Assembly: GCA_963674745.2 (NCBI GenBank)
Contig: CAXXDV010000003.1
Location: 736,001 to 800,000, forward strand
Length of the DNA: 64,000 nucleotides
Direction: 5' to 3'
Source of the DNA: Desulfosudaceae bacterium
GTDB taxonomy: Bacteria; Desulfobacterota; Desulfobacteria; Desulfobacterales; Desulfosudaceae
Positions 9,137 to 28,555 of the stretch are shown piece after piece (position 1 is the stretch's first letter; each line of letters begins with the position of its first letter). The notes below the pieces were generated by a model that was not told where the DNA came from, made no database searches, and was given only the letters and a program-made list of their open reading frames with translations. A program made the position numbers and the translations under genes.

Positions 9137-9325
9137 AAAGCGCTCCTTTTCGTGTATTGAAACTTAAAGTTAAACAGCCAGGCCGTACTTGTCAACCCGG
9201 GGTTGATGGAAGAACCCACGACTTGATTATTCTATCCATATCTGCCAAAGTTTATTCGTGAGAGTTGTAACTGGCATGTGAACGCTCATTAAATCCGTTT
9301 ATAACAAACGCATGAGGCAGGTCAT

Positions 9326-9568
9326 ATGAGCCGCTGGGAAATTCAGACCAATCCCGATTTATGCACGGGCTGCATGCGCTGCATGCTGGTCTGTTCATGG
9401 CAGTATGAAAAGCAGTTCGCTTTAGCCGCAGCCCGGATCCAGGTGTCAGTCGCCGACGCAGAAATCATTGTTTCATTTCTGGATGACTGCGTGCAATGCG
9501 GCCTGTGCGCGGATAATTGTTTTTACGGGGCACTGATTAAAAAGGAAATAACGGAGGAGGCGTCATGA
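9326..9568 (+). CDS. Small 4Fe-4S dicluster ferredoxin (AOR partner)
   Basis: CTGCMRCMLVC and CVQCGLCADNC; overlaps AOR start by 4 nt. Confidence 0.85.
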   Translation: MSRWEIQTNPDLCTGCMRCMLVCSWQYEKQFALAAARIQVSVADAEIIVSFLDDCVQCGLCADNCFYGALIKKEITEEAS

Positions 9569-11421
9569 CGGTGGCCGGCGGTTTTTCCGGAACCATACTG
9601 CACGTTGACCTGGCGGCACAACAGGTCCGCCGGCAGGCACTGGATGAACGGATGGCCCGGGATTTTATCGGCGGGCTGGGCCTGACCTTCCGGCTGGCAC
9701 TTGATGCCATTACACCCGGTGTTGATCCTTTATCAGCGGACAACCCCATTGTTCTCGGTGCAGGCCCCCTGGTCGGTACGGACGTGCCTTCGTCATCCCG
9801 TATTTACGCCGTCAGCAGGGTTCCCGCCACGGGCACCATCGGCTGGAGCGGGGCCGGAGGCATGACCTTCGGCTGTAACCTGAAATATGCGGGGTATGAC
9901 AATCTCATCATTACCGGCCAAAGTGACCATCCGGTTTTTCTGGAAATAAACGATGACAGAATCCTGTTTCATGATGCCGCTGATCTGTGGGGCAAGGGCA
10001 TTGCCGAAACCACCCGGCAGGTTAACCGGGTGACAGGCGGAAGCAGCGGCGTTATCGCCATCGGTCCGGCCGGTGAAAACCGTTCGGTATTTTCCATGGC
10101 TTATGTGGACGGCGTGTCCACCCTGGGCCGGGGCGGTTTCGGTGCGGTTTTCGGGTCCAAAAACCTGAAAGCCATTGCGGTCCACGGCACCGGCGGCGTC
10201 CGGGTGGCGGATCAAAAGGCATACCGGTCGCTGAGAAACGAGCTGGTGGAAGAAATCCGCAACTACCGGTATTTAAAGGAATGGCAGCACATGGGCATGC
10301 TCAAGTCCTTTCCGGTGGCGCCCCTGGAAGTGTACGAGAAGATCAAAAAGCGCCGCCTGGCCTGTGTTTCCTGCCCGGTGGGATGTAAAGACCTGGTTGA
10401 GATCAAGGACGGGCCTTTTGCCGGTGAAACCTTTCGGTCCAGTTCGGCCATCAATCTTTTTACCCCCCTGATGTACGGTTTTACCGATTATCGCGAGGCG
10501 GCCAGGCTGATCTCGGTGCTCGATGATTTCGGGATGGACATGTTCGAGTTCTTCGGGGTCATGCGTTTTGCCGCCGCCCTGTTTGAACAAGGCATACTGC
10601 CGGCAGAAGAAAACGATCCGCCGATTGTCATTAATGACTTGTCTGCAATGACCGCCTGGGCCAAAAAAACAGCCCAAAGGCAGGGGGTCGGGGATGTGCT
10701 GGCCGACGGGTTTGCCGGCATGCTGTCCGCTTACGGCGAACAGGCCGCCGGTTGCGCACCCGCCCTGGTCAAGAACATGCACCCCTATACCGGCCCGGAA
10801 TCGGCCCTTCCCTGGGACCTGTTCGGCACCATGGAGCTGGGACAGATGATTGATCCCCGGGGACCTCATGTCGGCTCGGGTGGTTCGCCCACCTATTTTG
10901 CCCGGCGGCCCCTGGATGTCTTTCCCCGGCACATGAAACGCATGGGCGTTCCCGAACAGGCTGTCGGGCGTATCCTGCCGGAAAATGAAAACAACGAAAC
11001 CGGCCTGAACGTGGGGGCTTTGCTGGCTTACTCCCACCGCTGGTTTTCCATACTGGGTTCTCTTGGTGTCTGTGCCCGGGGCCAGGTCAACCGGTTTTAT
11101 AATGCCGAACGGTGCGCGGTGCTTTACCAGTCCGTGACCGGTATCGCGACGACGCTCGAGCAGTTGCAGCACCGGGCCGCGCGGGTCTGGACACTGTACA
11201 AGATGTTGAATGTCCGGGAAGGTGTCGGCCGCACAGCGGACGCGGTGCCGGAACGCTGGGTCACCCAACCGGGATTCAAAGACTATCTGACCGAAACCTC
11301 CCTGACACGGGAACAGATCGAAGCCATGGTCAGCGATTATTACCGGGAGCAAGGCTGGCATCCGGATACCGGGGTGCCTGAACCGGAGACATTGAAACGA
11401 CTGGCACTTGATTCGTTTTAA
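9565..11421 (+). CDS. Aldehyde:ferredoxin oxidoreductase family (W/Mo-pterin) protein
   Basis: IL.VDL, LKYAGYD, IGPAGEN, GRGG.GAV.GSKNLKAI, CxxCxxxC, DDFGMD, YY...GW...TG.P..ETL..L.L. Confidence 0.9.
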   Translation: MTVAGGFSGTILHVDLAAQQVRRQALDERMARDFIGGLGLTFRLALDAITPGVDPLSADNPIVLGAGPLVGTDVPSSSRIYAVSRVPATGTIGWSGAGGMTFGCNLKYAGYDNLIITGQSDHPVFLEINDDRILFHDAADLWGKGIAETTRQVNRVTGGSSGVIAIGPAGENRSVFSMAYVDGVSTLGRGGFGAVFGSKNLKAIAVHGTGGVRVADQKAYRSLRNELVEEIRNYRYLKEWQHMGMLKSFPVAPLEVYEKIKKRRLACVSCPVGCKDLVEIKDGPFAGETFRSSSAINLFTPLMYGFTDYREAARLISVLDDFGMDMFEFFGVMRFAAALFEQGILPAEENDPPIVINDLSAMTAWAKKTAQRQGVGDVLADGFAGMLSAYGEQAAGCAPALVKNMHPYTGPESALPWDLFGTMELGQMIDPRGPHVGSGGSPTYFARRPLDVFPRHMKRMGVPEQAVGRILPENENNETGLNVGALLAYSHRWFSILGSLGVCARGQVNRFYNAERCAVLYQSVTGIATTLEQLQHRAARVWTLYKMLNVREGVGRTADAVPERWVTQPGFKDYLTETSLTREQIEAMVSDYYREQGWHPDTGVPEPETLKRLALDSF

Positions 11422-11468: not shown

Positions 11469-13241
11469 TTATCCGGTTTGATCCAAGGCGGTCAGCGTTT
11501 TTTCAAGGTTTGTTTTTGCTGCTTTATCTTTCGGATCAGCCTGCAAGGCTTTTTGAAAAAACGGAATGGCCTTTTCATAATTTCCCGAAGAAGCCATCAC
11601 CGCCCCCAGACCATTATACGCGGGCGCATAATCAGAATTGATGCGAAGCGCTTCTGTATAATAATGCGCGGCTTCTTGTAATTTTCTCTGCCTTAAAAAA
11701 AGATTGCCCACATTGGTCAGGGCCGTTATATTTCCGGGTTTTATTTCCAGGCTCCGGGCATAGTTTTCAGCCGCTTTTTTTATGTCTCCCTGTTCGGAAA
11801 AAAGGACGCCTAAATTGAGATACGCTGTTTCAAAATCGGGGTTGATCTGAATCGCCTTCCGGTAATGCACAATGGCTTTGTCCGGCATGCCTTTTTCTTT
11901 GTAGGCAAGTCCCAGGTTGTTCTGCGCGACAAAATTTTCCGCTGTTACATCAAGGCTGTGCTTGAATAACGTTATGCTGTCTTTCCAATAATTCACCTGG
12001 ATTCTGCTGGCAAGGAGTAAAATGCCTATCAGCGACACGACGATAGTGCCGATATAGACATTTTTCAGGCGCCATTTTGTCGCCAGGGCCGTACCGCCCC
12101 ATGCAAATATGATAAATATGCCGATAAGGGGTATATATGTATATCGATCCGCCAGTCCCTGGGTGCCGACTTGAACGATGCCGATAACAGGTACCAGCGT
12201 ACCCGCAAACCATAACCATCCAACGATGAAGTACGGGTGTGTTTTGTATGTTTTAACGGCAATTGTGGATATGAGTGCCAAAATGATGCTGCAAATGGTG
12301 GCGTTTGTTAACGAAATGGTTTCCGGGTATGGATAAGCAATGGCAAGGTTGATGGGCAGCAAGGTCTTATACAGATAAAGAATATAGGAAACCAGCGCAT
12401 TTGCCAGACGGCCGACAAATGGATATGTCTGTATATTAGCCAAGGCCCCGCCCGTTTGTTGGGCGTAAATCGTCATCAGGCAGGATCCTGCCGACAGCAG
12501 CAGAAAAGGGACCTTTTCCAACAGAAGATTGATGCCGGCTGATTTTTCTCTTTCCCCCTTCCGGGTGTTTTCCGTAACAAATCGATAACGGCGGAGCGGC
12601 CAGTAATCAAGCAGCATCAGGACAAAGGGGAGCGTAACAACCATGGGCTTTGCCATCAATCCCAGGAAAAATAGTAAGAGCGTGCCCAGGTAACGAAGCA
12701 AACTCTCTTTCTCTGCATAAACCGCATAACCGTACAGGGTCAGTATCCAAAAGAAAGTGCTCAGGATATCCTTTCTTTCGGCAACCCATGCGACTGATTC
12801 CACGTGAAGCGGATGGACGGCAAATAATGCCGCGACAAAACCGCTTTGCCATACGGCACCTGACATCCTTTTGAGAACCGTGAACAGAAGCAGCGTGTTG
12901 ATGATATGAAAAAGCAGGTTCGTCAGGTGATGCATTCCGGGATCCAGACCGAAAAATTCAACATCAACCATGTGAGACAGCCAGGTTAGCGGGTGCCAGT
13001 TTGACCGGGATGTTGAGGTAAATGCCCAAAGGACGCTGTCTGTTGATAACCCCTCCCTGACGCTGATATTTTCGACAACATATTCATAATCGTCATAATT
13101 AATAAAATGGTGGTTCCATACCCCCCAATACGCGCAGAGGGTGATGCATACCAAAAGGCCATAGATGAACAGGCTTTTCGATGAACCCGGGCCGGATGCC
13201 CTGGCGGCGTTGCCGGAAATTGTAATGCGGTTTTTTTCCAT
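11469..13241 (-). CDS. TMTC-like GT-C membrane glycosyltransferase with C-terminal TPRs
   Basis: NYDD loop, NWHPLTW, HPLHVESVAWVAERKD, ADRYTY motifs; many TM helices; about four TPRs. Confidence 0.8.
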   Translation of the reverse strand: MEKNRITISGNAARASGPGSSKSLFIYGLLVCITLCAYWGVWNHHFINYDDYEYVVENISVREGLSTDSVLWAFTSTSRSNWHPLTWLSHMVDVEFFGLDPGMHHLTNLLFHIINTLLLFTVLKRMSGAVWQSGFVAALFAVHPLHVESVAWVAERKDILSTFFWILTLYGYAVYAEKESLLRYLGTLLLFFLGLMAKPMVVTLPFVLMLLDYWPLRRYRFVTENTRKGEREKSAGINLLLEKVPFLLLSAGSCLMTIYAQQTGGALANIQTYPFVGRLANALVSYILYLYKTLLPINLAIAYPYPETISLTNATICSIILALISTIAVKTYKTHPYFIVGWLWFAGTLVPVIGIVQVGTQGLADRYTYIPLIGIFIIFAWGGTALATKWRLKNVYIGTIVVSLIGILLLASRIQVNYWKDSITLFKHSLDVTAENFVAQNNLGLAYKEKGMPDKAIVHYRKAIQINPDFETAYLNLGVLFSEQGDIKKAAENYARSLEIKPGNITALTNVGNLFLRQRKLQEAAHYYTEALRINSDYAPAYNGLGAVMASSGNYEKAIPFFQKALQADPKDKAAKTNLEKTLTALDQTG

Positions 13242-13429
13242 ACCTTAACCATTCATGCGTTGGGGCATGGTCTGTCTTTTGTTTTTATATAATTTGTAGC
13301 AAGACCGGTTTTTTCTGTCAATGCTTTCCCTCTTGGTAATTCAACCGCGTTTTAAAAAAATCCGTTTTTACGGAGACCTGTCGCCGTCGCATGCTTTTGG
13401 GTGATGATAAACCGCCGACAATATCATTT

Positions 13430-13467
13430 TTCATTTATTTTTCACTTTGTTTTCATAATCGTTTCAT
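13430..13467 (+). promoter_or_regulatory. Four tandem cre-tag-like repeats (TTCAY, 11-bp period); putative CreB site
   Basis: TTCAT 13430, TTCAC 13441, TTCAT 13452, TTCAT 13463; matches TTCAC-N6-TTCAC geometry; creBC lie in the downstream operon. Confidence 0.75.
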
Positions 13468-13525
13468 TCTCTCCGTGCATCATGCAGGCAAATCACGAAA
13501 CATATTATCATAAGGAGGATGCGCC

Positions 13526-15523
13526 ATGAAACAAAACCAAACCATTTCGATCATGATCATCGTTGTTTGTCTGGCCCTGTTTGCGGGAACGGCGGCCATC
13601 GGGGCCACAGGCACGGACAAGACCCTGTCACCGTATTTTTTTGTTCAAACCGAAGAAAGCGGCACGGATCATTTCCCGTTGAAAGCCACGGATGTCAGGG
13701 CGGATATCTGTGGTGTCATCGCCGATGTGTCGGTCAAGCAGGTTTACGAAAATCAGGGCACTGAGGCGATCAACGCGCAGTATATTTTTCCGGCCTCCAC
13801 CCGGGCGGCGGTTCACGGCCTGACCATGAAGATCGGTGAACGAATCATTCATGCCAGGGTGAAGGAAAAGGAAGTCGCCAAAAAAACGTTTGAGAAAGCC
13901 AAAAAAGAGGGCAAAAGCGCTACCCTGCTGGAGCAGCAGCGTCCCAACGTGTTCAGCATGAACGTGGCCAACATCATGCCGGGCGATAACATTGAAATCG
14001 AACTTCGTTACACGGAACTGCTCGTACCAACCGACGGTGTCTATGAATTTGTTTATCCCACCGTGGTCGGTCCACGGTATTCGGATCAGACGGAAGCACT
14101 TGCCCCGGCATCGGAGCAATGGGTCAAGAATCCGTATTTGAAACAGGGCACGCCTGTTTCAACAACCTTTGATATGAACGTCAACCTGTCCACCGGTCTG
14201 CCGATTCAGGATTTACAGTGCCGGACCCATGAGACGGTCGTTGACTGGAATGGTGAGGCCCGGGCGGGTGTCCGCCTGAAGAATGCCGGTGATTTCGGCG
14301 GTGATCGGGACTATATCCTGAACTATCGCCTGAGCGGATCAAAAATCGAATCCGGACTGACGCTTTATGAAGGCGAAGATGAAAATTTTTTCCTGCTCAT
14401 GGTTCAGCCGCCTGAACGCGTCAAGCCCGAGGAAATCCCCGCCCGGGAGTATGTTTTTGTGGTGGATGTGTCCGGTTCCATGAGCGGTTTCCCACTAAAT
14501 ACGGCCAAGCGATTGATGCGCGATCTGGTGGGCGGCCTGAAGCCGACGGATACGTTTAATGTCCTTCTGTTTTCCGGCAGCTCGCGTTTGATGTCTAATA
14601 CCTCCATTCCGGCCACGGCCGACAATATCAGCCGGGCCGTCGCATTTCTGGAAAAGCAGCGGGGCGGTGGCGGAACCCGGCTGTACAGTGCGCTTGACAA
14701 GGCTTTGCAACTTCCCCGGCGAGAGGGGTGTTCGCGTACCATGGTTATTGTTACCGACGGATATATCCAGGCCGAACGAGATGTGTTTGAATTGATTCAG
14801 GATAATATGAACCGGACCAATGTGTTTGCCTTCGGGATCGGCAGCGGTGTCAACCGTTATCTTATCGAGGGCATGGCCAAAGCCGGTATGGGCGAACCCT
14901 TTGTGGTGACCGACAAGGATGAAGCGCCGAAAACCGCCAGGGCTTTCCGGGAGTATATTTCCGCGCCGGTGTTGACCGGGGCTTCGGTTCGGTTTGACGG
15001 GTTTGAAACATATGATGTCGAACCCCCGTCCATTCCGGATCTTTTCGCCAAAAGGCCGGTGATTGTTTTTGGAAAGTGGCGGGGTAAAGCCCGGGGCAAG
15101 GTCACGGTGACCGGAACCGGCGGTCAGGGAGCTTACAAGCAGGTGTTTGATGTCTCCAAAATAAAGCCGGCGGATGTGAACCGGGCGCAACGATATCTCT
15201 GGGCGCGGTCCCGCATTTCCAGGCTTTCGGATTTTCAGAAGGGCAAATCAGATCCGGACCGGAAAGCGGAAATCACCAGCCTCGGCCTGACTTATAACCT
15301 GCTGACGGCGTATACCTCATTTATAGCGGTCCTCGAGGAAGTTCGTAATCCGCAGGGCAACGCCAAAAACGTGAAACAACCGCTGCCCCTGCCCAAGGGG
15401 GTTTCCAACAATGCTGTCGGCGGATGTGCCACCGTTCCCGAACCGGGGTTGCTGTACCTGTTGGCGGGATTGGGGGGTATCGCGATACTGATAAATCGGA
15501 AAAGAATTCTAAACAGGGGATAG
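13526..15523 (+). CDS. Secreted VIT + vWA domain protein with C-terminal PEP-CTERM-type sorting signal
   Basis: AAGGAGG RBS; signal peptide; VIT (V.Q.YEN...EA.YIFP...LLEQQRPNVF..NVANI.PG); MIDAS DVSGS/T/TDG; C-terminus VPEP-hydrophobic-RKR. Confidence 0.9.
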   Translation: MKQNQTISIMIIVVCLALFAGTAAIGATGTDKTLSPYFFVQTEESGTDHFPLKATDVRADICGVIADVSVKQVYENQGTEAINAQYIFPASTRAAVHGLTMKIGERIIHARVKEKEVAKKTFEKAKKEGKSATLLEQQRPNVFSMNVANIMPGDNIEIELRYTELLVPTDGVYEFVYPTVVGPRYSDQTEALAPASEQWVKNPYLKQGTPVSTTFDMNVNLSTGLPIQDLQCRTHETVVDWNGEARAGVRLKNAGDFGGDRDYILNYRLSGSKIESGLTLYEGEDENFFLLMVQPPERVKPEEIPAREYVFVVDVSGSMSGFPLNTAKRLMRDLVGGLKPTDTFNVLLFSGSSRLMSNTSIPATADNISRAVAFLEKQRGGGGTRLYSALDKALQLPRREGCSRTMVIVTDGYIQAERDVFELIQDNMNRTNVFAFGIGSGVNRYLIEGMAKAGMGEPFVVTDKDEAPKTARAFREYISAPVLTGASVRFDGFETYDVEPPSIPDLFAKRPVIVFGKWRGKARGKVTVTGTGGQGAYKQVFDVSKIKPADVNRAQRYLWARSRISRLSDFQKGKSDPDRKAEITSLGLTYNLLTAYTSFIAVLEEVRNPQGNAKNVKQPLPLPKGVSNNAVGGCATVPEPGLLYLLAGLGGIAILINRKRILNRG

Positions 15524-15525
15524 CC

Positions 15526-16341
15526 ATGAGATCCTGGCAGCAATCCATCAGGCGTGACGCGGTTTTTTATCCGGTTGCCGTTTTGATGGCCCTGGCGGTC
15601 AAGCAACACTTCAGCCAGGCCCGGCCGGAGGACCTTATTTGGATTCTCAAACCCACGGCGGGCCTGGTTTCCCTGCTCAACGGGGATGTGTTTATCTTTG
15701 AAGCCGGGGCCGGTTATGCCTGTCATGTTCGAAACGTGATCATTGCCCCGGCCTGTGCGGGTGTCAATTTCATGCTTATGGCCTTCGGGATGGCGGTTTT
15801 TTCCGGGATGCGCCACATGCGCGGGTGGCGGCATGGTGCTGCCTGGCTGCTGTCATGCCTGCTCGCGTCCTATCTGCTGACCCTGGTTGTAAACGCCCTG
15901 CGCATCATGGTTTCCATTTATACGTATAATTCGGGCGCTTTTGTCGATGGCATGATGTGGGAACGAATTCATCGCCTGGAAGGGATCGTGATATATTTCT
16001 TTTTTCAATACCTGTTTTATTCTATGATACAGAAGATTGTCCGGAGATATTCGGCCGGTCAAGTCGGTCGAATAACAAAAAATCCCGTGATGCCAGGGGG
16101 TGGAACGATGCGGCTCCGGAAAATCCTTGCAAAGGGAATGATGCCCTGTGCCTGGTATCTGGGTGTAACACTGGCCGTGCCTTTTTTTAACCGGGCGGCC
16201 GCCAGATACGGCAGCCTGTTTTTCGAGCACGCGGCCATGGTACTCAGCCTGTGCCTGATGACCTGGACCGGCATAGCCGTTGTTGAGCTCTGCGGTCAGG
16301 GAATTCGCCTGTTATTTTACCGGGGGTTATCAAAACCATGA
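15526..16341 (+). CDS. xrtK: Exosortase (K-like)
   Basis: Multi-TM; Cys-Arg-His triad IAPACAGVNF / NALRI / IHRLEG; LKPT..LV.L..G..F..E...GY motif; starts 2 nt after the VPEP protein stop. Subfamily assigned from memory of motifs. Confidence 0.75.
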   Translation: MRSWQQSIRRDAVFYPVAVLMALAVKQHFSQARPEDLIWILKPTAGLVSLLNGDVFIFEAGAGYACHVRNVIIAPACAGVNFMLMAFGMAVFSGMRHMRGWRHGAAWLLSCLLASYLLTLVVNALRIMVSIYTYNSGAFVDGMMWERIHRLEGIVIYFFFQYLFYSMIQKIVRRYSAGQVGRITKNPVMPGGGTMRLRKILAKGMMPCAWYLGVTLAVPFFNRAAARYGSLFFEHAAMVLSLCLMTWTGIAVVELCGQGIRLLFYRGLSKP

Positions 16342-17021
16342 AATCCAGAGTCCTGATTGTTGAAGACGAGCCGGCCATTGCCGATACCATCCAGTACGCG
16401 CTGGAAACCGACGGATTTCATACCGCCCTGCTGACTGCCGGGCAGCCGGTGCTGCCTTATCTGGCAGCGGAAAAAGTCGATCTGATGATACTGGATATCG
16501 GCCTGCCGGACATCAACGGACTTGAATTATGCAAAAAAATTCGTGAACAGCATGACCTGCCGATTATTTTCCTGACCGCCCGTTCCGATGAAGTTGACCG
16601 GGTGGTCGGCCTTGAGATCGGGGGGGATGATTATGTGACCAAGCCCTTCAGCCCGCGGGAGTTGTCCGCCCGGGTTCGGGCGGTCCTCAGGCGCACCGGG
16701 AAAGGCCCGTCTTCCGCCCCACCGGCGTCATCCGCATTTCATATTGATGAGATGCGGCAGCGGATATCATTTTACGGTGAAGTGCTGGACCTCTCCCGTT
16801 ATGAATTTCGTCTGCTGAAGACATTTATTGATTCTCCCGGGCGGGTCTTTACGCGGGACCAGCTCATGGCAAATGCCTGGGATGAACCCGAAGCCAGCAT
16901 GGACAGGACGGTGGACGCTCATATCAAGAACCTGCGGGCCAAGCTCAGAGCCGTTGATCCGGAGATGGATCCCATTGTAACCCACCGGGGCACGGGCTAT
17001 TCATTGAAAGAGGGGATATGA
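16338..17021 (+). CDS. creB: OmpR-family response regulator CreB
   Basis: VEDEPAIADTIQYALETDGF, DIGLPDING, GGDDYVTKPFSPRE, DRTVDAHIKNLRAKL, THRG.GYSL. Confidence 0.88.
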   Translation: MKSRVLIVEDEPAIADTIQYALETDGFHTALLTAGQPVLPYLAAEKVDLMILDIGLPDINGLELCKKIREQHDLPIIFLTARSDEVDRVVGLEIGGDDYVTKPFSPRELSARVRAVLRRTGKGPSSAPPASSAFHIDEMRQRISFYGEVLDLSRYEFRLLKTFIDSPGRVFTRDQLMANAWDEPEASMDRTVDAHIKNLRAKLRAVDPEMDPIVTHRGTGYSLKEGI

Positions 17022-18478
17022 AACTCGGTATTCGCATCTTTTTTCTATATGTGACGATTTTCGTGATCTGTTTTTATTACCCCATCAATTGGACCTGGAC
17101 CAATCTCCGCTTCCGGTACCTGGAAGGCGTGGAGGACCCGCTGGTGGACCAGGCCAACATCCTGGCCGCCATTGTCGGCCACCAGATGCAAAGCGGCAGC
17201 TTCGATCCAAAAGCCTTTTACCGGGCATTTCAGAGTGTCTATGGCCGGCAGCTTAAAGCCCGGATTTATCAGTTTGATAAAGACCGGGTGGATATGCGGG
17301 TATATATTACGGACAAGGCCGGTCGGATTGTTTTTGATTCCGAGGACAACGGTCGTGTGGGTGAAGATTATGCCACCTGGCGGGATGTCCGCCTGACGCT
17401 GGATGGCGAATACGGGGCCCGGTCGACGCTCAAGGATCCGGAAGAGCCCACATCTTCCGTGCTGTATGTGGCGGCGCCGATCATGGTCAACGGTGAAACC
17501 GCCGGTGTCCTGACCGTGGCAAAACCGACCACGGCCGTCAACACCTTTCTGGAAAAAGCCAAACCCCGGATCGTCAGGATCGGGCTGCTTGCGGCCCTGG
17601 TCGCTATTGTTTTGAGCTTTCTCGTTTCTTATGCGGTTACCCTGCCCATCCGGCGGCTGACGCGTTACGCGAATGATATCAGCGCCGGTCGGCGATCTTC
17701 TTTTCCCCGGCTGGACACTAGCGAGATCGGTGATATGGGCAAAGCCTTTGAAAAGATGCAGGAGGCGCTGGAAGGTAAAAAATACGTGGAACAGTACGTC
17801 CAAAAGCTGACCCATGAAATCAAAAGCCCCTTGTCGGCTATCCGGGGGGCGGCCGAATTGCTCGAAGAGCAGATGGACGAGGCGCAGCGGGAGCGTTTTT
17901 TAGCCAATATTCATAATGAAGCCAATCGTATTCAGGACATTGTTGACCGCCTGCTGGAGCTGGCGTCACTGGAAAACCTGAAACAACTCAATAAGCGGGA
18001 AAGTATATCTATCGGCTCGCTGATACGGACAACCCTGGAAAGCATGCGTCCCATCATTGCCAAAAAAAAACTGACCGTTGTCAACCGGGTGCCGGAGGGT
18101 ATCATGGTCAGCGGCGATTCCTTTCTGCTGCATCGGGCCATTTCCAATCTGGTCCAGAATGCCGTGGACTTCAGTCCTGTCCATGGGCAGATCGAACTGG
18201 CGGCCACAAGAAGCAGCCAGGGCGTGGAATTGACCGTAGAGGATCACGGTCCGGGTATCCCTGATTATGCGGTCGGCAAGGTGTTTGATAAGTTCTTTTC
18301 CCTTCAACGGCCGGATACCGGCAGAAAAAGCACGGGTCTGGGATTGAATTTCGTAAAAGAAGTGGCCATGTTGCATAATGGTGACATAGGGCTACAGAAC
18401 AGGGCCGGGGGCGGCGCACGGGCCGTTTTGAGGCTGGAAAACAAGCCCCGCTCACCGGCCGTTCATCTTCCCTCCTGA
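17018..18478 (+). CDS. creC: Sensor histidine kinase CreC
   Basis: MKLGIRIF, E..LVD.ANILA, DY..WRDV.LTL.GEYGARST, LYVAAP, LEGKKYVEQYVQKLTHEIKSPL, FFSLQRP...KSTGLGL.FV.EVA.LH.G. Confidence 0.9.
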   Translation: MKLGIRIFFLYVTIFVICFYYPINWTWTNLRFRYLEGVEDPLVDQANILAAIVGHQMQSGSFDPKAFYRAFQSVYGRQLKARIYQFDKDRVDMRVYITDKAGRIVFDSEDNGRVGEDYATWRDVRLTLDGEYGARSTLKDPEEPTSSVLYVAAPIMVNGETAGVLTVAKPTTAVNTFLEKAKPRIVRIGLLAALVAIVLSFLVSYAVTLPIRRLTRYANDISAGRRSSFPRLDTSEIGDMGKAFEKMQEALEGKKYVEQYVQKLTHEIKSPLSAIRGAAELLEEQMDEAQRERFLANIHNEANRIQDIVDRLLELASLENLKQLNKRESISIGSLIRTTLESMRPIIAKKKLTVVNRVPEGIMVSGDSFLLHRAISNLVQNAVDFSPVHGQIELAATRSSQGVELTVEDHGPGIPDYAVGKVFDKFFSLQRPDTGRKSTGLGLNFVKEVAMLHNGDIGLQNRAGGGARAVLRLENKPRSPAVHLPS

Positions 18479-18605: not shown

Positions 18606-18634
18606 TTGACTTTTTTCGGGGTTTCATTTATAAT
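18606..18634 (+). promoter_or_regulatory. Near-consensus sigma70 promoter
   Basis: TTGACT-17 bp-TATAAT, about 70 nt upstream of ATG 18703. Confidence 0.7.
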
Positions 18635-18702
18635 ATACTATATTTATTATATTTTGACGCCATTAAAAATTCCTTTTGTTTCTTTGGTTACAGGAAGGCG
18701 AT

Positions 18703-21471
18703 ATGTCCCCGACTTTACAACCCCAATCAGAAGAGTCCGCCCGACTGGAAGTGAACCTGGCGTTCGCAGCCCTTGAAAAAGGGGATCGGGAGGCGGCCCG
18801 GAGCCATTTCCACACAGCGGTGACAAGGCTTATCGACACGGGCCATTCAGAATCCAGCAGCCTGCTGATAACCGCTACGCTGGAGCTTTCCAAATTAAAT
18901 TTTATCGGCGGCAAAGGGTTCATCGAAGCCATTCCCTTTCTTCAGGCCAGCCTGAAAACCGCCCAATTTCTGGGTGACCTTCGTTCCATGGCCATGATCA
19001 AACTTCATCTGGGCCGACACTATTTTTTTGCCGGCAAACGGAAGAAAGCCACCGCTTTTTTCCAGGAGGGGAAGGATGAAGTAGAAGGCCTGGGCGATGA
19101 CGATATCCGGGACAGTGCGGCAGAGCTTATCGGCTTTTATTATTATCTTCAGGGACGGTTTGCCGAAGCCCTCGCCTATTTTGAAGTGGCCGTGGAACGA
19201 TTGGAAACGACCCGGGGCGTCCTGGTCCCCAGCCTTTCTGCTCCGGTATGGCTTGGATATTGTGCCGCTTACCTGGGGCAGTTTAATCGCGCCATCGGGA
19301 CCCTGGATTATTACCGTCGCATTCTGCGTGAGCGGGGAGATCGGACCCTGGCTGCCGTGACGCAGGCCCTGCTGGGTATCATCCTGCTGGAAATCAGAAA
19401 AAACAGTGAAGCTGTGACGCACCTTAAAGGCGCTATAGACGAGGCGGAAAAGACCGGAAATGTCATGGCGCTGTATTTCGCCACGGGCGGCATGGCCCTG
19501 TACTATTTTATCGACGGGAACATGGAGGCCTGTCGCCGTTGTGCCGCCGATACCCTTCAGATCGGTCAGGACGCCGGTATGTTCAGGCAATATATTACAC
19601 CGAATTTTCTGGAAATCGGATCCGCCTTTATCCGGGCGGGTGAATCCTTCCTGCCCGGTAAAGACGACCTTATCGAAATCGACCGTATCTTAAACGGTCC
19701 GAATGTTCATTTAAAAGGTGTTTTGCTGCGTCTGGTGGCGGAATATCGACTGTCGCTTGACGACAGCTTTGATCCGGAAAAAGATTTTCTGGCCAGCAAG
19801 CAGTACCTGAAAGAATCAGGCGATCCGATTCAACTGGCCAAAACCCGTTTTGCTTTGACGCGCAGTTATCTCAAGCAGGAAGACTTCATCAATGCCCGGG
19901 TTGAGGCCAGAAAAGCATGGAAAGAACTGGCCGGCTACGAAGAAACTTTTTTCCCCAAAGACCTTCTTTATCTGCTGGCAACGGAACCGGGCGTGGAACC
20001 GGCGCTGGAAACAAAAGAGGAGGTTCTGCTCCGGTTTATCGATATTATTACCGAGCTCATGCCGGTGCCGTCTCCTCACCGGCTGCTGACCCGGCTGGTT
20101 CAATCCACCAACCGGTTTTTCGGTGCGGAGCGGGGCGCGCTTTTCTGGTTTTCCGACACAACGAAAAAACCGCCCATGGTTCGGGCCGCCTGCAACCTGA
20201 CCGAAACAGACGCTTTTTCCGAGGGGTTCCGATCCAATCTGGCGCTGATCTTTGATGCTTACCGTGAGAACCGGCCGATATTGATACATGGCGCCCATAA
20301 GTCTCAGGAGCCTTACAAGGAAAAGGCGATACTCTGCCTTCCTTTTCAGATTCAAGACCGTACCAGGGGCGTCCTGTACCACGATAACGCCTATGTGACC
20401 GATCGTTTCAGCTCTCTTGACCAGATTCAGTTGCGCCGGTTGATCTACGCGCTCAGCAGCTATATTGAGCATGTCTGCGGTCTTTCCCGGGGGGTTGAAA
20501 AGTTTTCTTCAGAAACGACCGTGTCCAGGGGAACGGCCAGGGCCGCGGATATTATAGGTGAAAGCGATAAAATCAAGGCCATTCTGTCCAAGATTGCTCA
20601 GGTGGCCCCGGTTGACAGCAATATATTGATTCTGGGAGAAACCGGTGTCGGTAAAGAGCTGATCGCCCGTCGAATTCACGAGAAGAGCAATCGGCGTGAA
20701 GGCCCCATGGTCGTGGTGGATCCCACTGCCATTCCTGAAAGCCTGGTAGAGAGTGAACTGTTCGGTCATGAAAAAGGCGCTTTTACCGGCGCCGATTCCC
20801 GGAAAAAAGGGCTTCTGGAACTTGCCCATAAAGGCACCCTGTTCATTGATGAGGTGGGTGATATCCCCAAACAGGTTCAGGTTAAGCTGCTTCGGGTGCT
20901 CCAGGAAAAAACAACCATGCGTGTGGGCGGCATCAAATCCATTTTGACCGATTTCCGCCTGGTGTGCGCCACCAATCGCGACCTGGCCGAAGAGGTGGCG
21001 GCCGGCCGGTTTCGTGAAGACCTTTATTATCGATTGAATGTCATTCCCGTCAAGGTACCGGCTTTGCGGGAACGTAAAGAAGACATCATTCCCCTGGCCG
21101 TCTATTTTTTAAAACGCTATGCCATCCGCCACAACCGGCCTGTTCCCACCATGAGCCCCGAAGTAGAAACAAAACTGCTTACCTATCACTGGCCGGGAAA
21201 CGTTCGGGAACTGGAAAACATGATCGAACGCGGTATGCTGCTGTCCAAAGGTGAGGTGCTCGAACTGGACTTGCCCAGCAGCGACTCGCACCACACGGCC
21301 GACCCTTTTTTTGATCTGCCCACCCTGGACGAGGTGCAGCGACGCTACATTCAACATGTTCTGGAAAAGACCGGCGGCAGGGTCGGTGGGCCGGGCGGAT
21401 CGGCGGAAATTCTTGGCTTAAAACGTACTACCCTGTACAGTAAAATGAAGCGGCTTGATATCCGGTCATAA
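18703..21471 (+). CDS. Sigma-54-dependent transcriptional activator with TPR-like and GAF regions
   Basis: GETGVGKE, ESELFGHEKGAFTGA, LFIDE, FREDLYYRLNV, WPGNVRELEN, Fis-type HTH; GAF-like LCLP...GVLY.DN. Confidence 0.9.
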   Translation: MSPTLQPQSEESARLEVNLAFAALEKGDREAARSHFHTAVTRLIDTGHSESSSLLITATLELSKLNFIGGKGFIEAIPFLQASLKTAQFLGDLRSMAMIKLHLGRHYFFAGKRKKATAFFQEGKDEVEGLGDDDIRDSAAELIGFYYYLQGRFAEALAYFEVAVERLETTRGVLVPSLSAPVWLGYCAAYLGQFNRAIGTLDYYRRILRERGDRTLAAVTQALLGIILLEIRKNSEAVTHLKGAIDEAEKTGNVMALYFATGGMALYYFIDGNMEACRRCAADTLQIGQDAGMFRQYITPNFLEIGSAFIRAGESFLPGKDDLIEIDRILNGPNVHLKGVLLRLVAEYRLSLDDSFDPEKDFLASKQYLKESGDPIQLAKTRFALTRSYLKQEDFINARVEARKAWKELAGYEETFFPKDLLYLLATEPGVEPALETKEEVLLRFIDIITELMPVPSPHRLLTRLVQSTNRFFGAERGALFWFSDTTKKPPMVRAACNLTETDAFSEGFRSNLALIFDAYRENRPILIHGAHKSQEPYKEKAILCLPFQIQDRTRGVLYHDNAYVTDRFSSLDQIQLRRLIYALSSYIEHVCGLSRGVEKFSSETTVSRGTARAADIIGESDKIKAILSKIAQVAPVDSNILILGETGVGKELIARRIHEKSNRREGPMVVVDPTAIPESLVESELFGHEKGAFTGADSRKKGLLELAHKGTLFIDEVGDIPKQVQVKLLRVLQEKTTMRVGGIKSILTDFRLVCATNRDLAEEVAAGRFREDLYYRLNVIPVKVPALRERKEDIIPLAVYFLKRYAIRHNRPVPTMSPEVETKLLTYHWPGNVRELENMIERGMLLSKGEVLELDLPSSDSHHTADPFFDLPTLDEVQRRYIQHVLEKTGGRVGGPGGSAEILGLKRTTLYSKMKRLDIRS

Positions 21472-22319: not shown

Positions 22320-24602
22320 TTAGTCTTTTTGTTTCCCCGTCATTTTAGATCTGTAATGTTTCAACCGGCTCTGAAAATAGTCTGTAGCCGTATCCTGGCC
22401 GGCATCGGTGGTGATGCGCAACCCTTTTCGGGCAAGGGCCGTGGCCCTTGGAAAGTCTCCCGCAGCCGCGTATGCATCGGCCAGCGTGCCGATATATAAA
22501 GGCTGCTGGTAGTCCGTCAGTCGGCAGGCTTTTGCGGCTGATATAATCGCTTCGGTTGCATACCGGGGGTTTTGATCCCGGGCAGTGATTAAAAGCCGGG
22601 CCAGATAGTCAAGAACCCGGGGCAATCGGGGATGGTATTCCAACAGCTGCCGCAATTCGCTGATGGCCTCTTCCTTTCTGCCACTGTCGGCCAGGGCAAC
22701 CGCCAGGTTAAAACGCGGCTGCTGTTCATAAGGACGAAGCCGGATAGCCTCATGGAAACGGTTGGTCGCCTGTTCAATATCACCCCGTTCCGCCAGGGCC
22801 ACGGCCAGGGAATTGTAAGCTTCGAAAAAATCATCATCGATTTGCACCGCGGCGTTCAAATGGTTGATGGCATCTTCCAGTTTTCCCCGGGAAAATAAAA
22901 TGTTGCCGAGGTTATAGTGCGCCTCGGGGTAACGCGGGTTCAACGCTATCGCCCTGGAATAATGTTCGAGGGCCCGGTCGGTTTCATTGATGCCGGCCAG
23001 GGCCGAGGCCAGGTTGTTGTGGACTTCGGCGGCACTGTCGTCTTGTTCCAGAGCGATATTAAAATGTTTGATCGCTTCTTGATAACGCCCCTTGCGGGTT
23101 AATGCCATCCCCAGGTTGCCGTGTGCTGAAGGGAAGTTAAATTTTAATGCCAGGGCGTAGTCCAGGTGCACGATCGCCTGATCCGTCCGACCGCGCCTTA
23201 ACGCTTCTTCTCCCGTGTCGGCGTATAATTCAGCCTCGTAGTTGATCTCTTCTTCGGGAAACGGGCCCGGCAGCGTCGAAACCAGAACCACGACGGCCAT
23301 GACGGTACCCGTGATCCAAAAAAGTCTGGGATTTGATGCACCTATCAACTCTTTTAATCTCAACAGCCCTGCGGTCGCGACAACAGACATAACCGGGATA
23401 AGGGGGATCCGATAACGGGCGGTGACAAAAATCAGTATCAACAGAAGCGGATTTAAAAATAGATATATTTTCAGCAACACGGGAATGCGTTGCCAGCAGA
23501 GGATCAACCCTGCCAGCGTCAGGGGCAGCAGCACGCCGAAAGGAAAACCGAAGCCGTTCACTTTCCAGGTCAGCTGTCCAAGCAGCCATGACCATTGGCG
23601 GAAGAGGTAGATATCCACGTTTCTCGGTATCTCTCGCGAGTTGAAAAGCCGGACGGTTTTACCGGCCAGTCCCCGCATAAAGAGGACCGGTTGTGATCGC
23701 ACAAAATCTTTAAAACGCTTGAAATAATACTCCTGCCGGGTCCACATGTCGCCGGAACCCCCGTTTTGACCGGCCAGGTTGGTTATTTTCCGCCAGTCCC
23801 GTCCGGGACGGGCGGTCAATGTTCCGGTGGCATCCGGGTTGTTGCCGATATACAGGTTGATTCCGCCGCCGGCGGATACGATTCCGTAGTGACCGGTTAT
23901 TTTTTTGTTTTTTTCAGCCACGGGCAGGGCGATCAGGCAGAAACCGGCCAGGATAAGGAACAGTTTGAGTATCGGATGATTGACCGGGTTTTCCCGTTGA
24001 AAAAAACGTATTATCAGCCAGATCGTCCCGGCCATAAAGAACGGAAGAAAAACAGGCCGGGTTAAAATGCTTAAAGCGCCGCAAACACCCAGAACCATAC
24101 ATACCCACCATTTTCCCCTGTCGGCCGCGTCCAGGAACAGCAGCATAAGAGCCAGAGACCAGAATACGGCCCAGCCGCAGGCCAGCAGTTCCTGTTCAAA
24201 AAAAATCAACGGGCCATAGGCCGCCACCATAATGCCGCTGATGATGCCGACGGCAGGCTTGAAAATATTTCTTCCCAGCCGGTATGTCAGCAGGCAGCAG
24301 AAACTGCCCAATATTGCCTGGACCAGTTTGGCCAGAAGGATTGAGTTGTTGCTGATCGCATAGACCAGGGCCAGGAAGGCCGGGTAAAAGGGGGGTTGCC
24401 AGAAGAAATTATGATAATAGTTTACGCCTTTACCGGCTGCCATCATGCGGGCGGTGATGTCATAGACACCCGCATCGACAACCGGTGTTGTAAAGGTCGG
24501 GCCGGATGTGCTCTGATAGAGGTAAATCAGACGTAACATCAGAGCCAGTAGAAAAATTCCGGCCTGAATACCCAACTCTTTCTTAAAAGACACGCCCTTC
24601 AA
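22320..24602 (-). CDS. GT39/PMT-like GT-C membrane glycosyltransferase with TPR tail
   Basis: VDAGVYD loop, PPFYP.FLA, NLYIGNNP, ARYRIP motifs; multiple TM helices; C-terminal TPRs. Confidence 0.78.
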   Translation of the reverse strand: MKGVSFKKELGIQAGIFLLALMLRLIYLYQSTSGPTFTTPVVDAGVYDITARMMAAGKGVNYYHNFFWQPPFYPAFLALVYAISNNSILLAKLVQAILGSFCCLLTYRLGRNIFKPAVGIISGIMVAAYGPLIFFEQELLACGWAVFWSLALMLLFLDAADRGKWWVCMVLGVCGALSILTRPVFLPFFMAGTIWLIIRFFQRENPVNHPILKLFLILAGFCLIALPVAEKNKKITGHYGIVSAGGGINLYIGNNPDATGTLTARPGRDWRKITNLAGQNGGSGDMWTRQEYYFKRFKDFVRSQPVLFMRGLAGKTVRLFNSREIPRNVDIYLFRQWSWLLGQLTWKVNGFGFPFGVLLPLTLAGLILCWQRIPVLLKIYLFLNPLLLILIFVTARYRIPLIPVMSVVATAGLLRLKELIGASNPRLFWITGTVMAVVVLVSTLPGPFPEEEINYEAELYADTGEEALRRGRTDQAIVHLDYALALKFNFPSAHGNLGMALTRKGRYQEAIKHFNIALEQDDSAAEVHNNLASALAGINETDRALEHYSRAIALNPRYPEAHYNLGNILFSRGKLEDAINHLNAAVQIDDDFFEAYNSLAVALAERGDIEQATNRFHEAIRLRPYEQQPRFNLAVALADSGRKEEAISELRQLLEYHPRLPRVLDYLARLLITARDQNPRYATEAIISAAKACRLTDYQQPLYIGTLADAYAAAGDFPRATALARKGLRITTDAGQDTATDYFQSRLKHYRSKMTGKQKD

Positions 24603-25933: not shown

Positions 25934-27544
25934 ATGAATGACAATGACCGATACAAGAAAAGCGCATTATGGTATATGTCGTTGTCCGTTGTCGTCATGA
26001 CGATGATTGCCCTGATGACCCGGATGCAAGGGCTTAATCCGCCTTCTCTTTTTATCGACGATCTCTGGCAGGGCCTTTTGTCCGGTGCCTCCCTGCCGGA
26101 TCAATTCAGGTTACGTTCTTCAGCCCCCATTGCTTTTACGGCGCTTTTGGGAACGGCTTTACGTCTTATACCTGACCCGGAATTGAGCCTGCAGCTGGTT
26201 CCTTTTCTGGCCGGTCTGGCGCTGATCCCGCTTATGGCCTGGGTCGTCTACCGGTTGACCAAAAATCCCCCGGCAGCGGTTCTGGCGGCCGCCATGATCA
26301 CCTTTGCCCCGCAGGTGGCTGAGCTTTCCATCCGCGTCAAACAGTATGCCCTTGACGCGTTGCTGGTGGCTGTCCTTCTACTGCTGGCGATCATTGTCTG
26401 TGAAGAAAAGAAATATTTTACCCTGCTGGTTGTCGCCGCGTTGACGTCCCTTCTTTTTTCATTCAGTTCCGCGGTTGTGTCCGTACTGTTGATCAGCGCC
26501 TTTGCCGTTTCCCATTGGCGGGGCCTTCTGAAGAAGGCGAAAAACCGGTGGATACTTGTCAACCTGGCTGTGTTTTTTATCTGTACCGGTCTATATTACG
26601 GTTTTGTCTTAAGCGGGCAGAAAAATCTGGGTCTGGAAGTGTTCTGGCGGGGCTGTTTTCCTGATTCGTTTCAGGGCTTTTTTTCCGGACTGACGGCCCT
26701 TTTTAAAGCGCTTGTACCGAAACCTGAAAATCTGTCTTCACAATGGGTCGAGCCTTTTCGTCAGGCGCTGTCTTTTGTTTATATCGGTCTTGCCGCTTTC
26801 GGGGCGTTAATGATTGTTCGCAAGCCTGCTTACCGGTGGCTGGGCATCTGTCTTGTGTGCCTGTACCCGGTGCTGTGCATGATGGCTTTTCTGCACTTAT
26901 ATCCGCTGGGGGGTGGGCGGACGGATCTGTTCACCTATCCGGTAACCATTTTATTAATATCGTCTGGCCTGGCCGGGCTGTTTGAGAGTCTGAAAAGAAA
27001 AATATGGCGGATGGATCGAATGCTCATCGTTTGCGCTGTTTTCGTCCTGCCATTCTGCATACCATCGATTCTGGGCCCCAAAATTTATTATCGGACCGGT
27101 GGTAAATTACCTGAGATGGTTTCTAGCGCGCAGGCTGCCATGCGCCCTGATGACGGCCTCATTGTTTATCCCCATTGCGCTTTCTGCTTTGCTTATTACA
27201 GTAACTGGCCTGTATTTCTTGAACCCTGTGACTATTACGCTGCCGGTTTTAACCCGGTGATCAAGCAGGGCAATGTGCATGTTCTTCCCGGGGAGATTGG
27301 ATATACCGATCATCCGGAAATTCTTGTCCCGGAACTACAGGCGATAATAGACCGCGGTTATCCCGGTCTGGTTTTTTTTACCATGGCTGTGCCCGCCAGT
27401 GATCATTTCAATCGTTATGTCAACAATCACTTGAAAAGTTGCGGATATTTTCCGATCGGAAAAATTCAAGACCGGGCCATTGCTGCAATAATAATTTACC
27501 GCGCTGATATGGACGGACCGTCCCGGGAACCGGAAAATGAGTGA
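25934..27544 (+). CDS. GT-C (ArnT/PMT_2-like) membrane glycosyltransferase, copy A
   Basis: SLFIDD loop, VKQY..D, YPLGG.R motifs; more than 10 hydrophobic helices; soluble C-terminal domain. Confidence 0.72.
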   Translation: MNDNDRYKKSALWYMSLSVVVMTMIALMTRMQGLNPPSLFIDDLWQGLLSGASLPDQFRLRSSAPIAFTALLGTALRLIPDPELSLQLVPFLAGLALIPLMAWVVYRLTKNPPAAVLAAAMITFAPQVAELSIRVKQYALDALLVAVLLLLAIIVCEEKKYFTLLVVAALTSLLFSFSSAVVSVLLISAFAVSHWRGLLKKAKNRWILVNLAVFFICTGLYYGFVLSGQKNLGLEVFWRGCFPDSFQGFFSGLTALFKALVPKPENLSSQWVEPFRQALSFVYIGLAAFGALMIVRKPAYRWLGICLVCLYPVLCMMAFLHLYPLGGGRTDLFTYPVTILLISSGLAGLFESLKRKIWRMDRMLIVCAVFVLPFCIPSILGPKIYYRTGGKLPEMVSSAQAAMRPDDGLIVYPHCAFCFAYYSNWPVFLEPCDYYAAGFNPVIKQGNVHVLPGEIGYTDHPEILVPELQAIIDRGYPGLVFFTMAVPASDHFNRYVNNHLKSCGYFPIGKIQDRAIAAIIIYRADMDGPSREPENE

Positions 27545-28555
27545 CAACGACCGGTACAAGAAAACCGCGATACGGTTTATGCTGTTGTCCGTTGCGGTAA
27601 TGACCGTGATTGCCCTGATGACCCGGATGCAAGGGCTTAATCCGCCTTCTCTTTTTATCGACGATCTCTGGCAGGGCCTTTTGTCCGGTGCCTCCCTGCC
27701 GGATCAATTCAGGTTACGTTCTTCAGCCCCCATTGCTTTTACGGCGCTTTTGGGAACGGCTTTACGTCTTATACCTGACCCGGAATTGAGCCTGCAGCTG
27801 GTTCCTTTTCTGGCCGGTCTGGCGCTGATCCCGCTTATGGCCTGGGTCGTCTACCGGTTGACCAAAAATCCCCCGGCAGCGGTTCTGGCGGCCGCCATGA
27901 TCACCTTTGCCCCGCAGGTGGCTGAGCTTTCCATCCGCGTCAAACAGTATACCCTTGACGCGTTGCTGGTGGCTGTCCTTCTACTGCTGGCGATCATTGT
28001 CTGTGAAGAAAAGAAATATTTTACCCTGCTGGTTGTCGCCGCGTTGACGTCCCTTCTTTTTTCATTCAGTTCCGCGGTTGTGTCCGTACTGTTGATCAGC
28101 GCCTTTGCCGTTTCCCATTGGCGGGGCCTTCTGAAGAAGGCGGAAAACCGGTGGATACTTGTCAACCTGGCTGTATTTTTTGTCAGTACCGGTATATATT
28201 ACGGTTTTGTCTTAAGCGGGCAGAAAAATCTGGGTCTGGAAGTGTTCTGGCGGGGCTGTTTTCCTGATTCGTTTCAGGGCTTTTTTTCCGGACTGACGGC
28301 CCTTTTTAAAGCGCTTGTACCGAAACCTGAAAATCTGTCTTCACAATGGGTCGAGCCTTTTCGTCAGGCGCTGTCTTTTGTTTATATCGGTCTTGCCGCT
28401 TTCGGGGCGTTAATGATTGTTCGCAAGCCTGCTTACCGGTGGCTGGGCATCTGTCTTGTGTGCCTGTACCCGGTGCTGTGCATGATGGCTTTTCTGCACT
28501 TATATCCGCTGGGGGGTGGGCGGACGGATCTGTTCACCTATCCGGTAACCATTTT
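26004..28555 (+). repeat. Near-identical direct repeat 26004-26952 / 27607-28555 (offset 1603)
   Basis: About 950 bp with roughly six mismatches counted by eye; flanking parts homologous but clearly diverged. Confidence 0.95.

Follow-up and report, generated by a model that had tools for sequence, protein, structure and literature searches.

What does the CreBC two-component pair switch on in a bacterium where its genes close an operon that begins with a surface protein and a sorting enzyme? To our knowledge CreBC is widely conserved while its stimulus and physiological output are poorly defined outside a few gammaproteobacteria, and the chemistry of exosortases, both cleavage site and acceptor, is as far as we know still unresolved. 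Both matters meet in a stretch of 64,000 nucleotides (nt), hereafter the window, from a Desulfosudaceae bacterium (positions 736,001 to 800,000 of contig CAXXDV010000003.1, assembly GCA_963674745.2; genome of 5.5 Mb, 99.96% complete, coded G000). At 13526-18478 of its forward strand, four open reading frames (ORFs) with near-zero spacing encode a protein with VIT and vWA domains (the cargo), an exosortase, CreB and CreC. An earlier note on this DNA had proposed an envelope module under CreBC control whose sorted protein functionally replaces CreD. The analysis described here favours a different answer, namely that the locus is probably a self-contained operon activated by CreB, in which a dedicated one-enzyme, one-substrate exosortase system is joined to its own pair of regulators.

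The tight four-gene layout was recovered with the coordinates and junctions first reported: a gap of 2 nt separates the cargo and exosortase genes, an ATGA overlap of 4 nt is found at both the exosortase/creB and the creB/creC junctions, and the four genes are translationally coupled. A longer exosortase ORF from 15424 was set aside, as it overlaps the cargo gene and is unneeded, and the later ATG is preferred (Table 1). The four proteins were identified by Pfam and NCBIfam hidden Markov model (HMM) scans with curated cut-offs. CreB reached 328.8 bits against NF008296 (cut-off 273) and CreC 592.4 bits against NF008312 (cut-off 356), scores above the equivalog cut-offs that bear out the identities originally given to both. 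The genome yields 67 kinase-like matches, of which CreC alone exceeds the CreC cut-off; the runner-up reaches 167 bits.

The cargo carries a signal-peptide-like segment at its N-terminus, followed by a VIT domain (PF08487, 118.1 bits) and a vWA domain (VWA families at 50-66 bits, above cut-offs) with a complete metal-ion-dependent adhesion site (MIDAS), read from the sequence as DVSGS, T384 and D411. This is the VIT-then-vWA architecture of inter-alpha-trypsin inhibitor heavy chains (ITIH), and the best sequence matches in the PDB were PARP4 (E 2.3e-30, aa 47-548) and ITIH4 (E 1e-21). Its C-terminus has the tripartite build of a PEP-CTERM tail, in which the PEP motif is followed by a hydrophobic helix and then by a basic cluster, and it is the sole PEP-CTERM match in the genome. 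The PEP is retained in the tail of 74 of 78 cargo homologues, whose consensus reads VPEP[E/G/D], a helix, and then R/K. Domain scans and residues thus agree with the secreted protein, ending in VPEP, a transmembrane helix and RKR, that had been recognised before.

The enzyme next to it passes the XrtK model TIGR04287 (114.6 bits, cut-off 55) and the family signature TIGR04178 (34.1 bits, cut-off 23), and is the only exosortase-signature match in the genome; the HMM classification proposed in the earlier note therefore gave an XrtK-type enzyme, as it did for the orthologues tested (91.9-123.3 bits). An alignment of 81 relatives shows no exception at Cys77, Asn123, Arg126 or His149. Within the Cys/Arg/His triad already noted, the Cys motif served as search pattern and is invariant by construction, whereas Arg and His were not selected for. 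No solved structure resembling the exosortase was found. A passage of PMC3237569 describes a dedicated system as one sorting enzyme and one target standing side by side, and the present pair is a dedicated system in Haft's sense because one exosortase and one PEP-CTERM match are found in 5.5 Mb, 2 nt apart.

The evidence for control by CreB comes from the DNA in front of the cargo gene, where four TTCAY half-sites in an 11-bp register lie 59-96 nt upstream of the start. According to a passage of PMC4689548, the published cre/blr tag TTCACN6TTCAC stands upstream of creD and is critical for binding of CreB and BlrA. Strict TTCAY triples with N6 spacers gave three overlapping matches when both strands of the 5.5-Mb genome were searched, at only two loci, the operon and creD (C1:1743106). 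Nine other spacings yielded 0-2 matches and ten scrambled half-sites 0-1, the phased triple being far rarer than chance; one-mismatch versions of the tag, taken alone, occur in the window at chance level (3 against 3.7 expected). A looser rule of three out of four slots adds one gapped site at G000:C3:1010386. It precedes a further two-component locus, the kinase of which ranks second among the CreC-like matches (167 bits), and this could be a further CreB target or a chance occurrence; period-12 controls under the same rule gave three matches. When the upstream regions of the window and of its three closest relatives were aligned, no conservation was seen until the array, where four TTTTCAY units appear, and a GCATC.T block after them was kept in all four regions. 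An array abutting a -10 element in this way would resemble a pho-box arrangement.

Table 1. Positions of the operon, its predicted control elements, the flanking genes and the unlinked creD (window coordinates unless a contig is given)
Feature	Position	Strand	Remarks
Four phased half-sites TTCAT, TTCAC, TTCAT, TTCAT	13430..13467	+	N6 spacers, 11-bp period; predicted CreB site, extended cre-tag
GCATCAT block	13477..13483	+	conserved; candidate -10 element, about 10 nt past last half-site
Ribosome-binding site AAGGAGG	13512..13518	+	read from sequence
Cargo gene	13526..15523	+	665 aa, stop TAG; ORF and family scans
Cargo VIT domain	13679-14011	+	Pfam
Cargo vWA domain	14453-14923	+	Pfam
Cargo DVSGS (MIDAS)	14465-14479	+	aa 314-318
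Cargo VPEP	15434-15445	+	aa 637-640
Cargo tail membrane helix	15446-15493	+	aa 641-656, 16 hydrophobic residues
Cargo basic cluster NRKRILNRG	15494-15520	+	aa 657-665
Exosortase gene	15526..16341	+	271 aa, ATG start at 15526
Exosortase Cys77	15754-15756	+	alignment of relatives
Exosortase Arg126	15901-15903	+	alignment of relatives
Exosortase His149	15970-15972	+	alignment of relatives
creB	16338..17021	+	227 aa, response regulator of OmpR/PhoB type; NF008296
creC	17018..18478	+	486 aa, sensor histidine kinase; NF008312
TPR/PMT_2 protein gene	11469-13241	-	PMT_2 (GT-C glycosyltransferase-like) match
TPR-GAF-AAA+ sigma-54 activator gene	18676-21471	+	directly 3' of creC
creD	G000:C1:1743273-1744529		full-length; PF06123, 548.8 bits
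creD array TTCAC-N6-TTCAT-N6-TTCAT	G000:C1:1743106-1743132		about 80 nt upstream of creD; array and creD are both in locus L001, about 1334-2784

The arrangement is not peculiar to this genome, a possibility that the earlier note had left standing against its own proposal, and turns up in numerous uncultured anaerobes. An exosortase alignment search over one genome per GTDB species confirmed 171 relatives, of which the best 80 were kept. According to record titles, the 80 are from many Desulfobacterales and Desulfobacteraceae, Desulfosarcina widdelii PP31 (a complete genome), Desulfosudis oleivorans, Smithella, Desulfatiglans, Syntrophorhabdus, Binatia, Thermoanaerobaculia, Blastocatellia, Moduliflexus/UASB14 and one metagenome-assembled genome (MAG) of Myxococcota. 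All four genes were found at 63 of the 80 loci, with creBC on the opposite strand at L109 and fragments only at L086. Two loci keep exosortase, creB and creC with the cargo beyond the contig end, three have creB cut by the contig end, two stop right after the exosortase and are uninformative, and at ten creBC was not found within at least 1.7 kb downstream; the gene content of L107 and L115 was reclassified by eye. Altogether, creB(C) adjoins the exosortase at 68 of 78 informative loci, and the cargo does so at 78 of 80, lying off the contig end at the other two. Of 63 kinase matches, 57 were scored with NCBIfam, six truncated or split ones being left out, and all 57 pass the CreC cut-off (530-622 bits); creB calls in this sample are from tblastn only, at 46-81% identity to P0003.

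The half-site array accompanies the genes. It was assessed at the 67 loci where 150 nt or more of sequence precede the cargo gene, 56 of them linked to creBC. In its best four-slot register, the array of these 56 has four strict half-sites at 23 loci, three at 18, two at nine, one at five and none at one; at least three are thus present at 41 of the 56, compared with one of 3704 non-overlapping 430-nt windows of the same loci taken as background. In a sliding scan of the 80 loci, further arrays of at least three sites turned up at only four, outside the stretch scanned at first; one is just past that stretch, and one (L098) precedes a second paralogue of the cargo. Where creBC is not adjacent, nine loci could be assessed, and the array occurs in three (L078, L094, L095) and is missing in six; CreC is encoded elsewhere in two of the three array-bearing genomes, and was found in none of the six genomes with array-less modules, nor in that of L135, whose upstream region could not be assessed. 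The presence of the array tracks the presence of CreC.

Some further variants were seen in this sample. Second, divergent VIT-vWA paralogues of about 38% identity occur at L098 (81-1997, 2375-3676) and L115 (5529-6833), the one in L098 with its own three-site array at 2267. At L110 a four-site phased array (10260-10320) lies about 240 nt past creC and before a gene other than creD, possibly a further member of the regulon. In six Thermoanaerobaculia loci (L122, L124, L130, L132, L134, L137), the array gives way to two direct half-sites and then an inverted copy, 80-90 nt before the cargo gene, in the form …TTCAT-N6-TTCAT…(A/G)TGAAC, which suggests that the operator geometry differs there.

A second sample covered 301 genomes of the phylum, including the source genome, with five CreC candidates scored in each; it shares three contigs with the wider one (L104 = L010, L118 = L011, L112 = L021). 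CreC exceeded the cut-off in seven genomes. In four of them (G000, G126, G034, G016) the creBC genes are flanked by genes for the VIT-vWA protein and for an exosortase of XrtK type; the flank is formed directly by creD in G124, by creD and a radical-SAM gene in G190, and by ZIP/CDF transporter genes in G049. Homologues of the VIT-vWA protein (E <= 1e-60) were found in 54 of the 301 genomes, at 58 places, of which 43 of the 57 outside the source genome were examined, fourteen being left out as short, split or congeneric. A PEP-type tail closes six of these 43 homologues (the G034 tail being read separately from the same contig), and these six adjoin an exosortase wherever the DNA sufficed, of XrtK type in G126, G034, G016 and G148 and XrtQ-like in G049 (183 bits, cut-off 270); the G200 contig was too short to judge. 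The module of G148 is array-less and stands in a genome without detected CreC. The other 37 homologues have C-terminal domains that are longer and different, with no exosortase detectable beside them by the P0002 search (at least 60 bits), and the one tested (L017) resembles an AgmX/PglI tail at 36.6 bits (cut-off 40). As a peculiarity of the G034 cargo (L011, G034:C37, about 9152-11068), one in-frame TGA separates VIT from vWA, which could reflect a pseudogene, a sequencing error or recoding.

Several results weigh against a CreB-activated, dedicated operon. Of the cre-tags that the earlier note had placed before the first gene, the four phased half-sites stood and the exact TTCACN6TTCAC did not, each adjacent pair of half-sites being one mismatch off; the perfect tag occurs ten times in the genome, close to a hand estimate from base composition, and is uninformative. 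A simple sigma-70 scan of 13242-13525 gave no promoter match. The PEP-CTERM model PF07589 is borderline on the cargo, with 17.0 bits for the protein (cut-off 20.7) and 23 bits in a six-frame genome scan. No more than two strict half-sites were found at 15 of the 56 creBC-linked loci, above all in Binatia and Thermoanaerobaculia; among the low scorers, L061 is masked by N, and at L071 four sites in array stand some 430 nt upstream, just past the stretch that was scanned. L078 has an array, yet CreC was not found in its MAG, and five of 14 assessable creD genes have one half-site or none.

In the favoured reading, CreC would phosphorylate CreB upon an envelope or metabolic cue, and two head-to-tail CreB dimers could then occupy the array beside the weak -10 element, as at a pho box. 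Phosphorylated CreB would activate the cargo, the exosortase and, by positive feedback, creB and creC, in addition to creD in trans. Sec would export the cargo, whose C-terminal helix and RKR cluster would anchor it in the inner membrane until the exosortase, through Cys77, Arg126 and His149, cleaves it at VPEP. As sortases and archaeosortase suggest by analogy, the cleaved VIT-vWA ectodomain may be passed to an acceptor in the envelope, or else be released. Its MIDAS might finally bind a ligand in a metal-dependent manner, serving in adhesion, in a matrix or in cross-bracing of the envelope.

The alternative that survives best touches the last steps only. The exosortase may merely free the ectodomain from its anchor, with no covalent transfer, leaving a soluble periplasmic or extracellular product; this is a minority possibility, though one to be taken seriously. 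No genes for making an acceptor (glycosyltransferase, EpsI-like) are conserved in the unit and the flanking genes are unconserved. Sortases and archaeosortase A are transpeptidases, however, which speaks for transfer, and the invariance of the Cys/Arg/His triad fits either outcome.

Placing the cargo and the exosortase on the input side of the pathway, where the VIT-vWA protein, once processed, would sense alongside CreC in the periplasm or modulate it, appears unlikely. The conserved order of cargo, enzyme, regulator and kinase is in its favour, as is the independent Pds system, which also couples a VIT-vWA cargo to a two-component pair and hints at something beyond simple regulation. Modules nonetheless occur in genomes without detected CreC (all six array-less cases and L135) and CreBC occurs without the module in G124 and G190, and therefore each part works alone; furthermore, the module of G049 keeps its array though it lies on another contig than creBC.

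That the VIT-vWA/exosortase pair stands in for CreD as the effector of CreBC, as first proposed, now seems improbable, somewhat more so than a role on the input side. Indeed creD is missing from the window, as had been stated, since the sole PF06123 match of the genome is on contig C1; but that match is a full-length creD preceded by the same kind of array, a finding that the earlier note had itself named as one that would overturn its proposal, and the module accordingly accompanies rather than replaces CreD here. From the initial proposal of a CreBC-controlled envelope unit, the operon-like arrangement, in a linkage now found to be widespread, the probable control by CreB and the XrtK-type exosortase have held, and the replacement of CreD in this genome has not. 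Across genomes the picture is mixed. A census at 50 of the 68 creBC-linked loci found creD in 11 module-bearing genomes and not in 39, the complete Desulfosarcina widdelii genome among the latter, and in the phylum sample the search for creD likewise came up empty in G016, a single contig at 99% completeness, in G126 at 93%, and in G148; most of these genomes are MAGs, and as their completeness in the census is unstated, a creD not found there does not equal a creD absent. The two are not mutually exclusive, as G034 and G049 carry creD elsewhere in the genome and join the 11 in having both; only at L087 does creD lie near the module. Where the 14 assessable creD genes are concerned, six are preceded by at least three strict half-sites and three by two with a degenerate third. 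In G049 the promoters of creD and of the VIT-vWA/XrtQ-like cassette look alike by eye, unaligned, over about 170 nt, with a four-to-five-unit array, and creBC is on a third contig. The exchange of neighbours does lend the proposal some colour: the upstream flank of creBC in the phylum sample is the module in four genomes, creD in two and neither in G049, and inside a single clade of CreC either the module or creD stands next door, two creD-linked kinases nesting among module-linked ones (SH-aLRT 97 and 90) in a quick, unrooted tree without outgroup and with long branches for L013, L014, L015 and L139. A recent swap within one genus, G016 against G190, is unsupported, since that tree does not group the CreCs of the two as sisters; in G190 a B12-binding radical-SAM gene lies between creD and creBC (L013, 1686-6789), and its congener G016 has the VIT-vWA/exosortase pair with creD undetected. 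The architectures are moreover unalike, CreD being a polytopic inner-membrane protein and the cargo a secreted ectodomain.

Finally, that the TTCAY array arose by chance as an AT-rich repeat, or serves a different regulator of OmpR type, with the operon otherwise controlled, is very improbable in spite of the third, gapped array before another two-component locus and the period-12 matches, given that strict triples stand only before the operon and creD, that the half-site equals that of the published cre-tag (as given in a passage of PMC4689548), that the array is conserved across phyla while flanks diverge, and that its presence goes with that of CreC.

The comparative data thereby give CreBC a conserved target set, made up of the sorted VIT-vWA protein, its exosortase and, where present, creD, together with a recognisable predicted CreB operator array. 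A one-enzyme, one-substrate system with an on-switch is also well suited to work on exosortase chemistry, with Desulfosarcina widdelii PP31 (locus L100) as a cultured carrier. A much bolder generalisation, which we hold as speculative and rather doubtful, is that in many anaerobic lineages what CreBC directly and conservedly controls is not CreD but a private exosortase that, on induction, anchors a VIT-vWA protein covalently to a polymer of the envelope, and that VIT-vWA proteins have been wired at least twice independently to a sorting enzyme and a two-component pair (sortase with PdsRS, exosortase with CreBC). If true, no simpler model than the single-cargo unit would be available for learning to what exosortases join their substrates, and covalent VIT-vWA anchoring would echo the way in which ITIH heavy chains of animals are attached to glycan at the C-terminus.

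The genes around the operon were considered as parts of the system and rejected. The TPR/PMT_2 protein on its 5' side had no match beside the module in the 80 loci, and for the sigma-54 activator on its 3' side only two AAA-domain matches were found there. A sigma-70-like promoter match (11 of 12, 18606-18634) precedes the activator gene. Three PMT_2 membrane proteins surround the operon, encoded by the gene in Table 1 and by 22320-24602 (-) and 27537-29102 (+), of which two are fusions with long TPR arrays, and an unassigned 536-aa ORF stands among these genes at 25934-27544. Farther out, an aldehyde:ferredoxin oxidoreductase gene with AFOR_N and AFOR_C domains (9565-11421, +) fits an anaerobic lifestyle.

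How does the operon compare with systems already described? A literature search, supplements being outside its scope, found no paper linking an exosortase, or XrtK in particular, with CreBC, and none naming exosortase K, XrtK, MSEP-CTERM or XrtN; the sole paper with both "exosortase" and "crec" was a false match to an author's name. The operon of an XrtK-type exosortase with CreBC, and the operator it shares with creD, are apparently undescribed. The nearest system by logic is Pds (sortase TIGR03784, target TIGR03788, regulator TIGR03787, kinase TIGR03785), which likewise has one VIT-vWA cargo, an adjacent dedicated enzyme and a two-component pair; in the favoured reading the operon would be its exosortase counterpart. 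The ectodomains are homologous, TIGR03788 matching aa 55-631 of the cargo with 417.1 bits, below its cut-off of 551.65. The enzyme is nevertheless an exosortase with a VPEP-helix-RKR tail instead of a sortase with LPXTG, and CreB and CreC miss the PdsR and PdsS cut-offs (134.6 against 335.7 and 139.4 against 612.2), so that with cargo, regulator and kinase below the cut-offs and no adjacent sortase or LPXTG tail the operon falls outside Pds. Haft and Varghese (2011) reported, in a passage of PMC3237569, VIT/vWA homologues with GlyGly-CTERM, PEP-CTERM or LPXTG tails, the LPXTG form with an adjacent dedicated sortase. Because this tail swapping was already shown there, a PEP-tailed VIT-vWA protein is not new in itself, and the Pds parallel suggests that VIT-vWA proteins generally need an inducible, covalent placement in the envelope.

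Also comparable are the exosortase Q (NF012182) cassettes with a VIT-vWA cargo, of which G049 offers a relative: its cargo is of the same type, 58% identical, with a VPEPE tail, beside the XrtQ-like exosortase, and its five-half-site array is like that of its creD. The subfamily is a different one, though, the exosortase is followed by an XrtT-tail-like protein and VanZ, and creBC is not adjacent. With the exosortase K/MSEP-CTERM pair the operon shares a small enzyme that passes the XrtK model and has a single neighbouring cargo, but the motif of the cargo is VPEP and not MSEP, and TIGR04286 gave no match to it at E <= 0.01; from the NCBIfam description we take XrtK (TIGR04287) to pair with the MSEP-CTERM target (TIGR04286) within Bacteroidota. 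As regards eukaryotic ITIH heavy chains and PARP4, the order of VIT and vWA and the MIDAS are the same and the sequences match, whereas the cargo is bacterial and has a signal peptide and an exosortase tail. ITIH heavy chains are joined to glycosaminoglycan by a C-terminal ester link, which serves here as an analogy only.

The closest comparison for the regulators is with CreBC-CreD and BlrAB-BlrD of E. coli, Aeromonas, Pseudomonas and Stenotrophomonas. The CreB and CreC equivalogs, a creD with a direct-repeat tag, the half-site and the 11-bp register are all common to them and to the genome studied here, and the position of the tag, about 60-100 nt before the start codon here, compares with -80 to -65 in S. 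maltophilia (in a passage of PMC4689548). The difference lies in that creD is unlinked here and creBC closes an operon whose first gene encodes a sorted surface protein, under a tag of three to five TTCAY half-sites in place of the two TTCAC of the published one.

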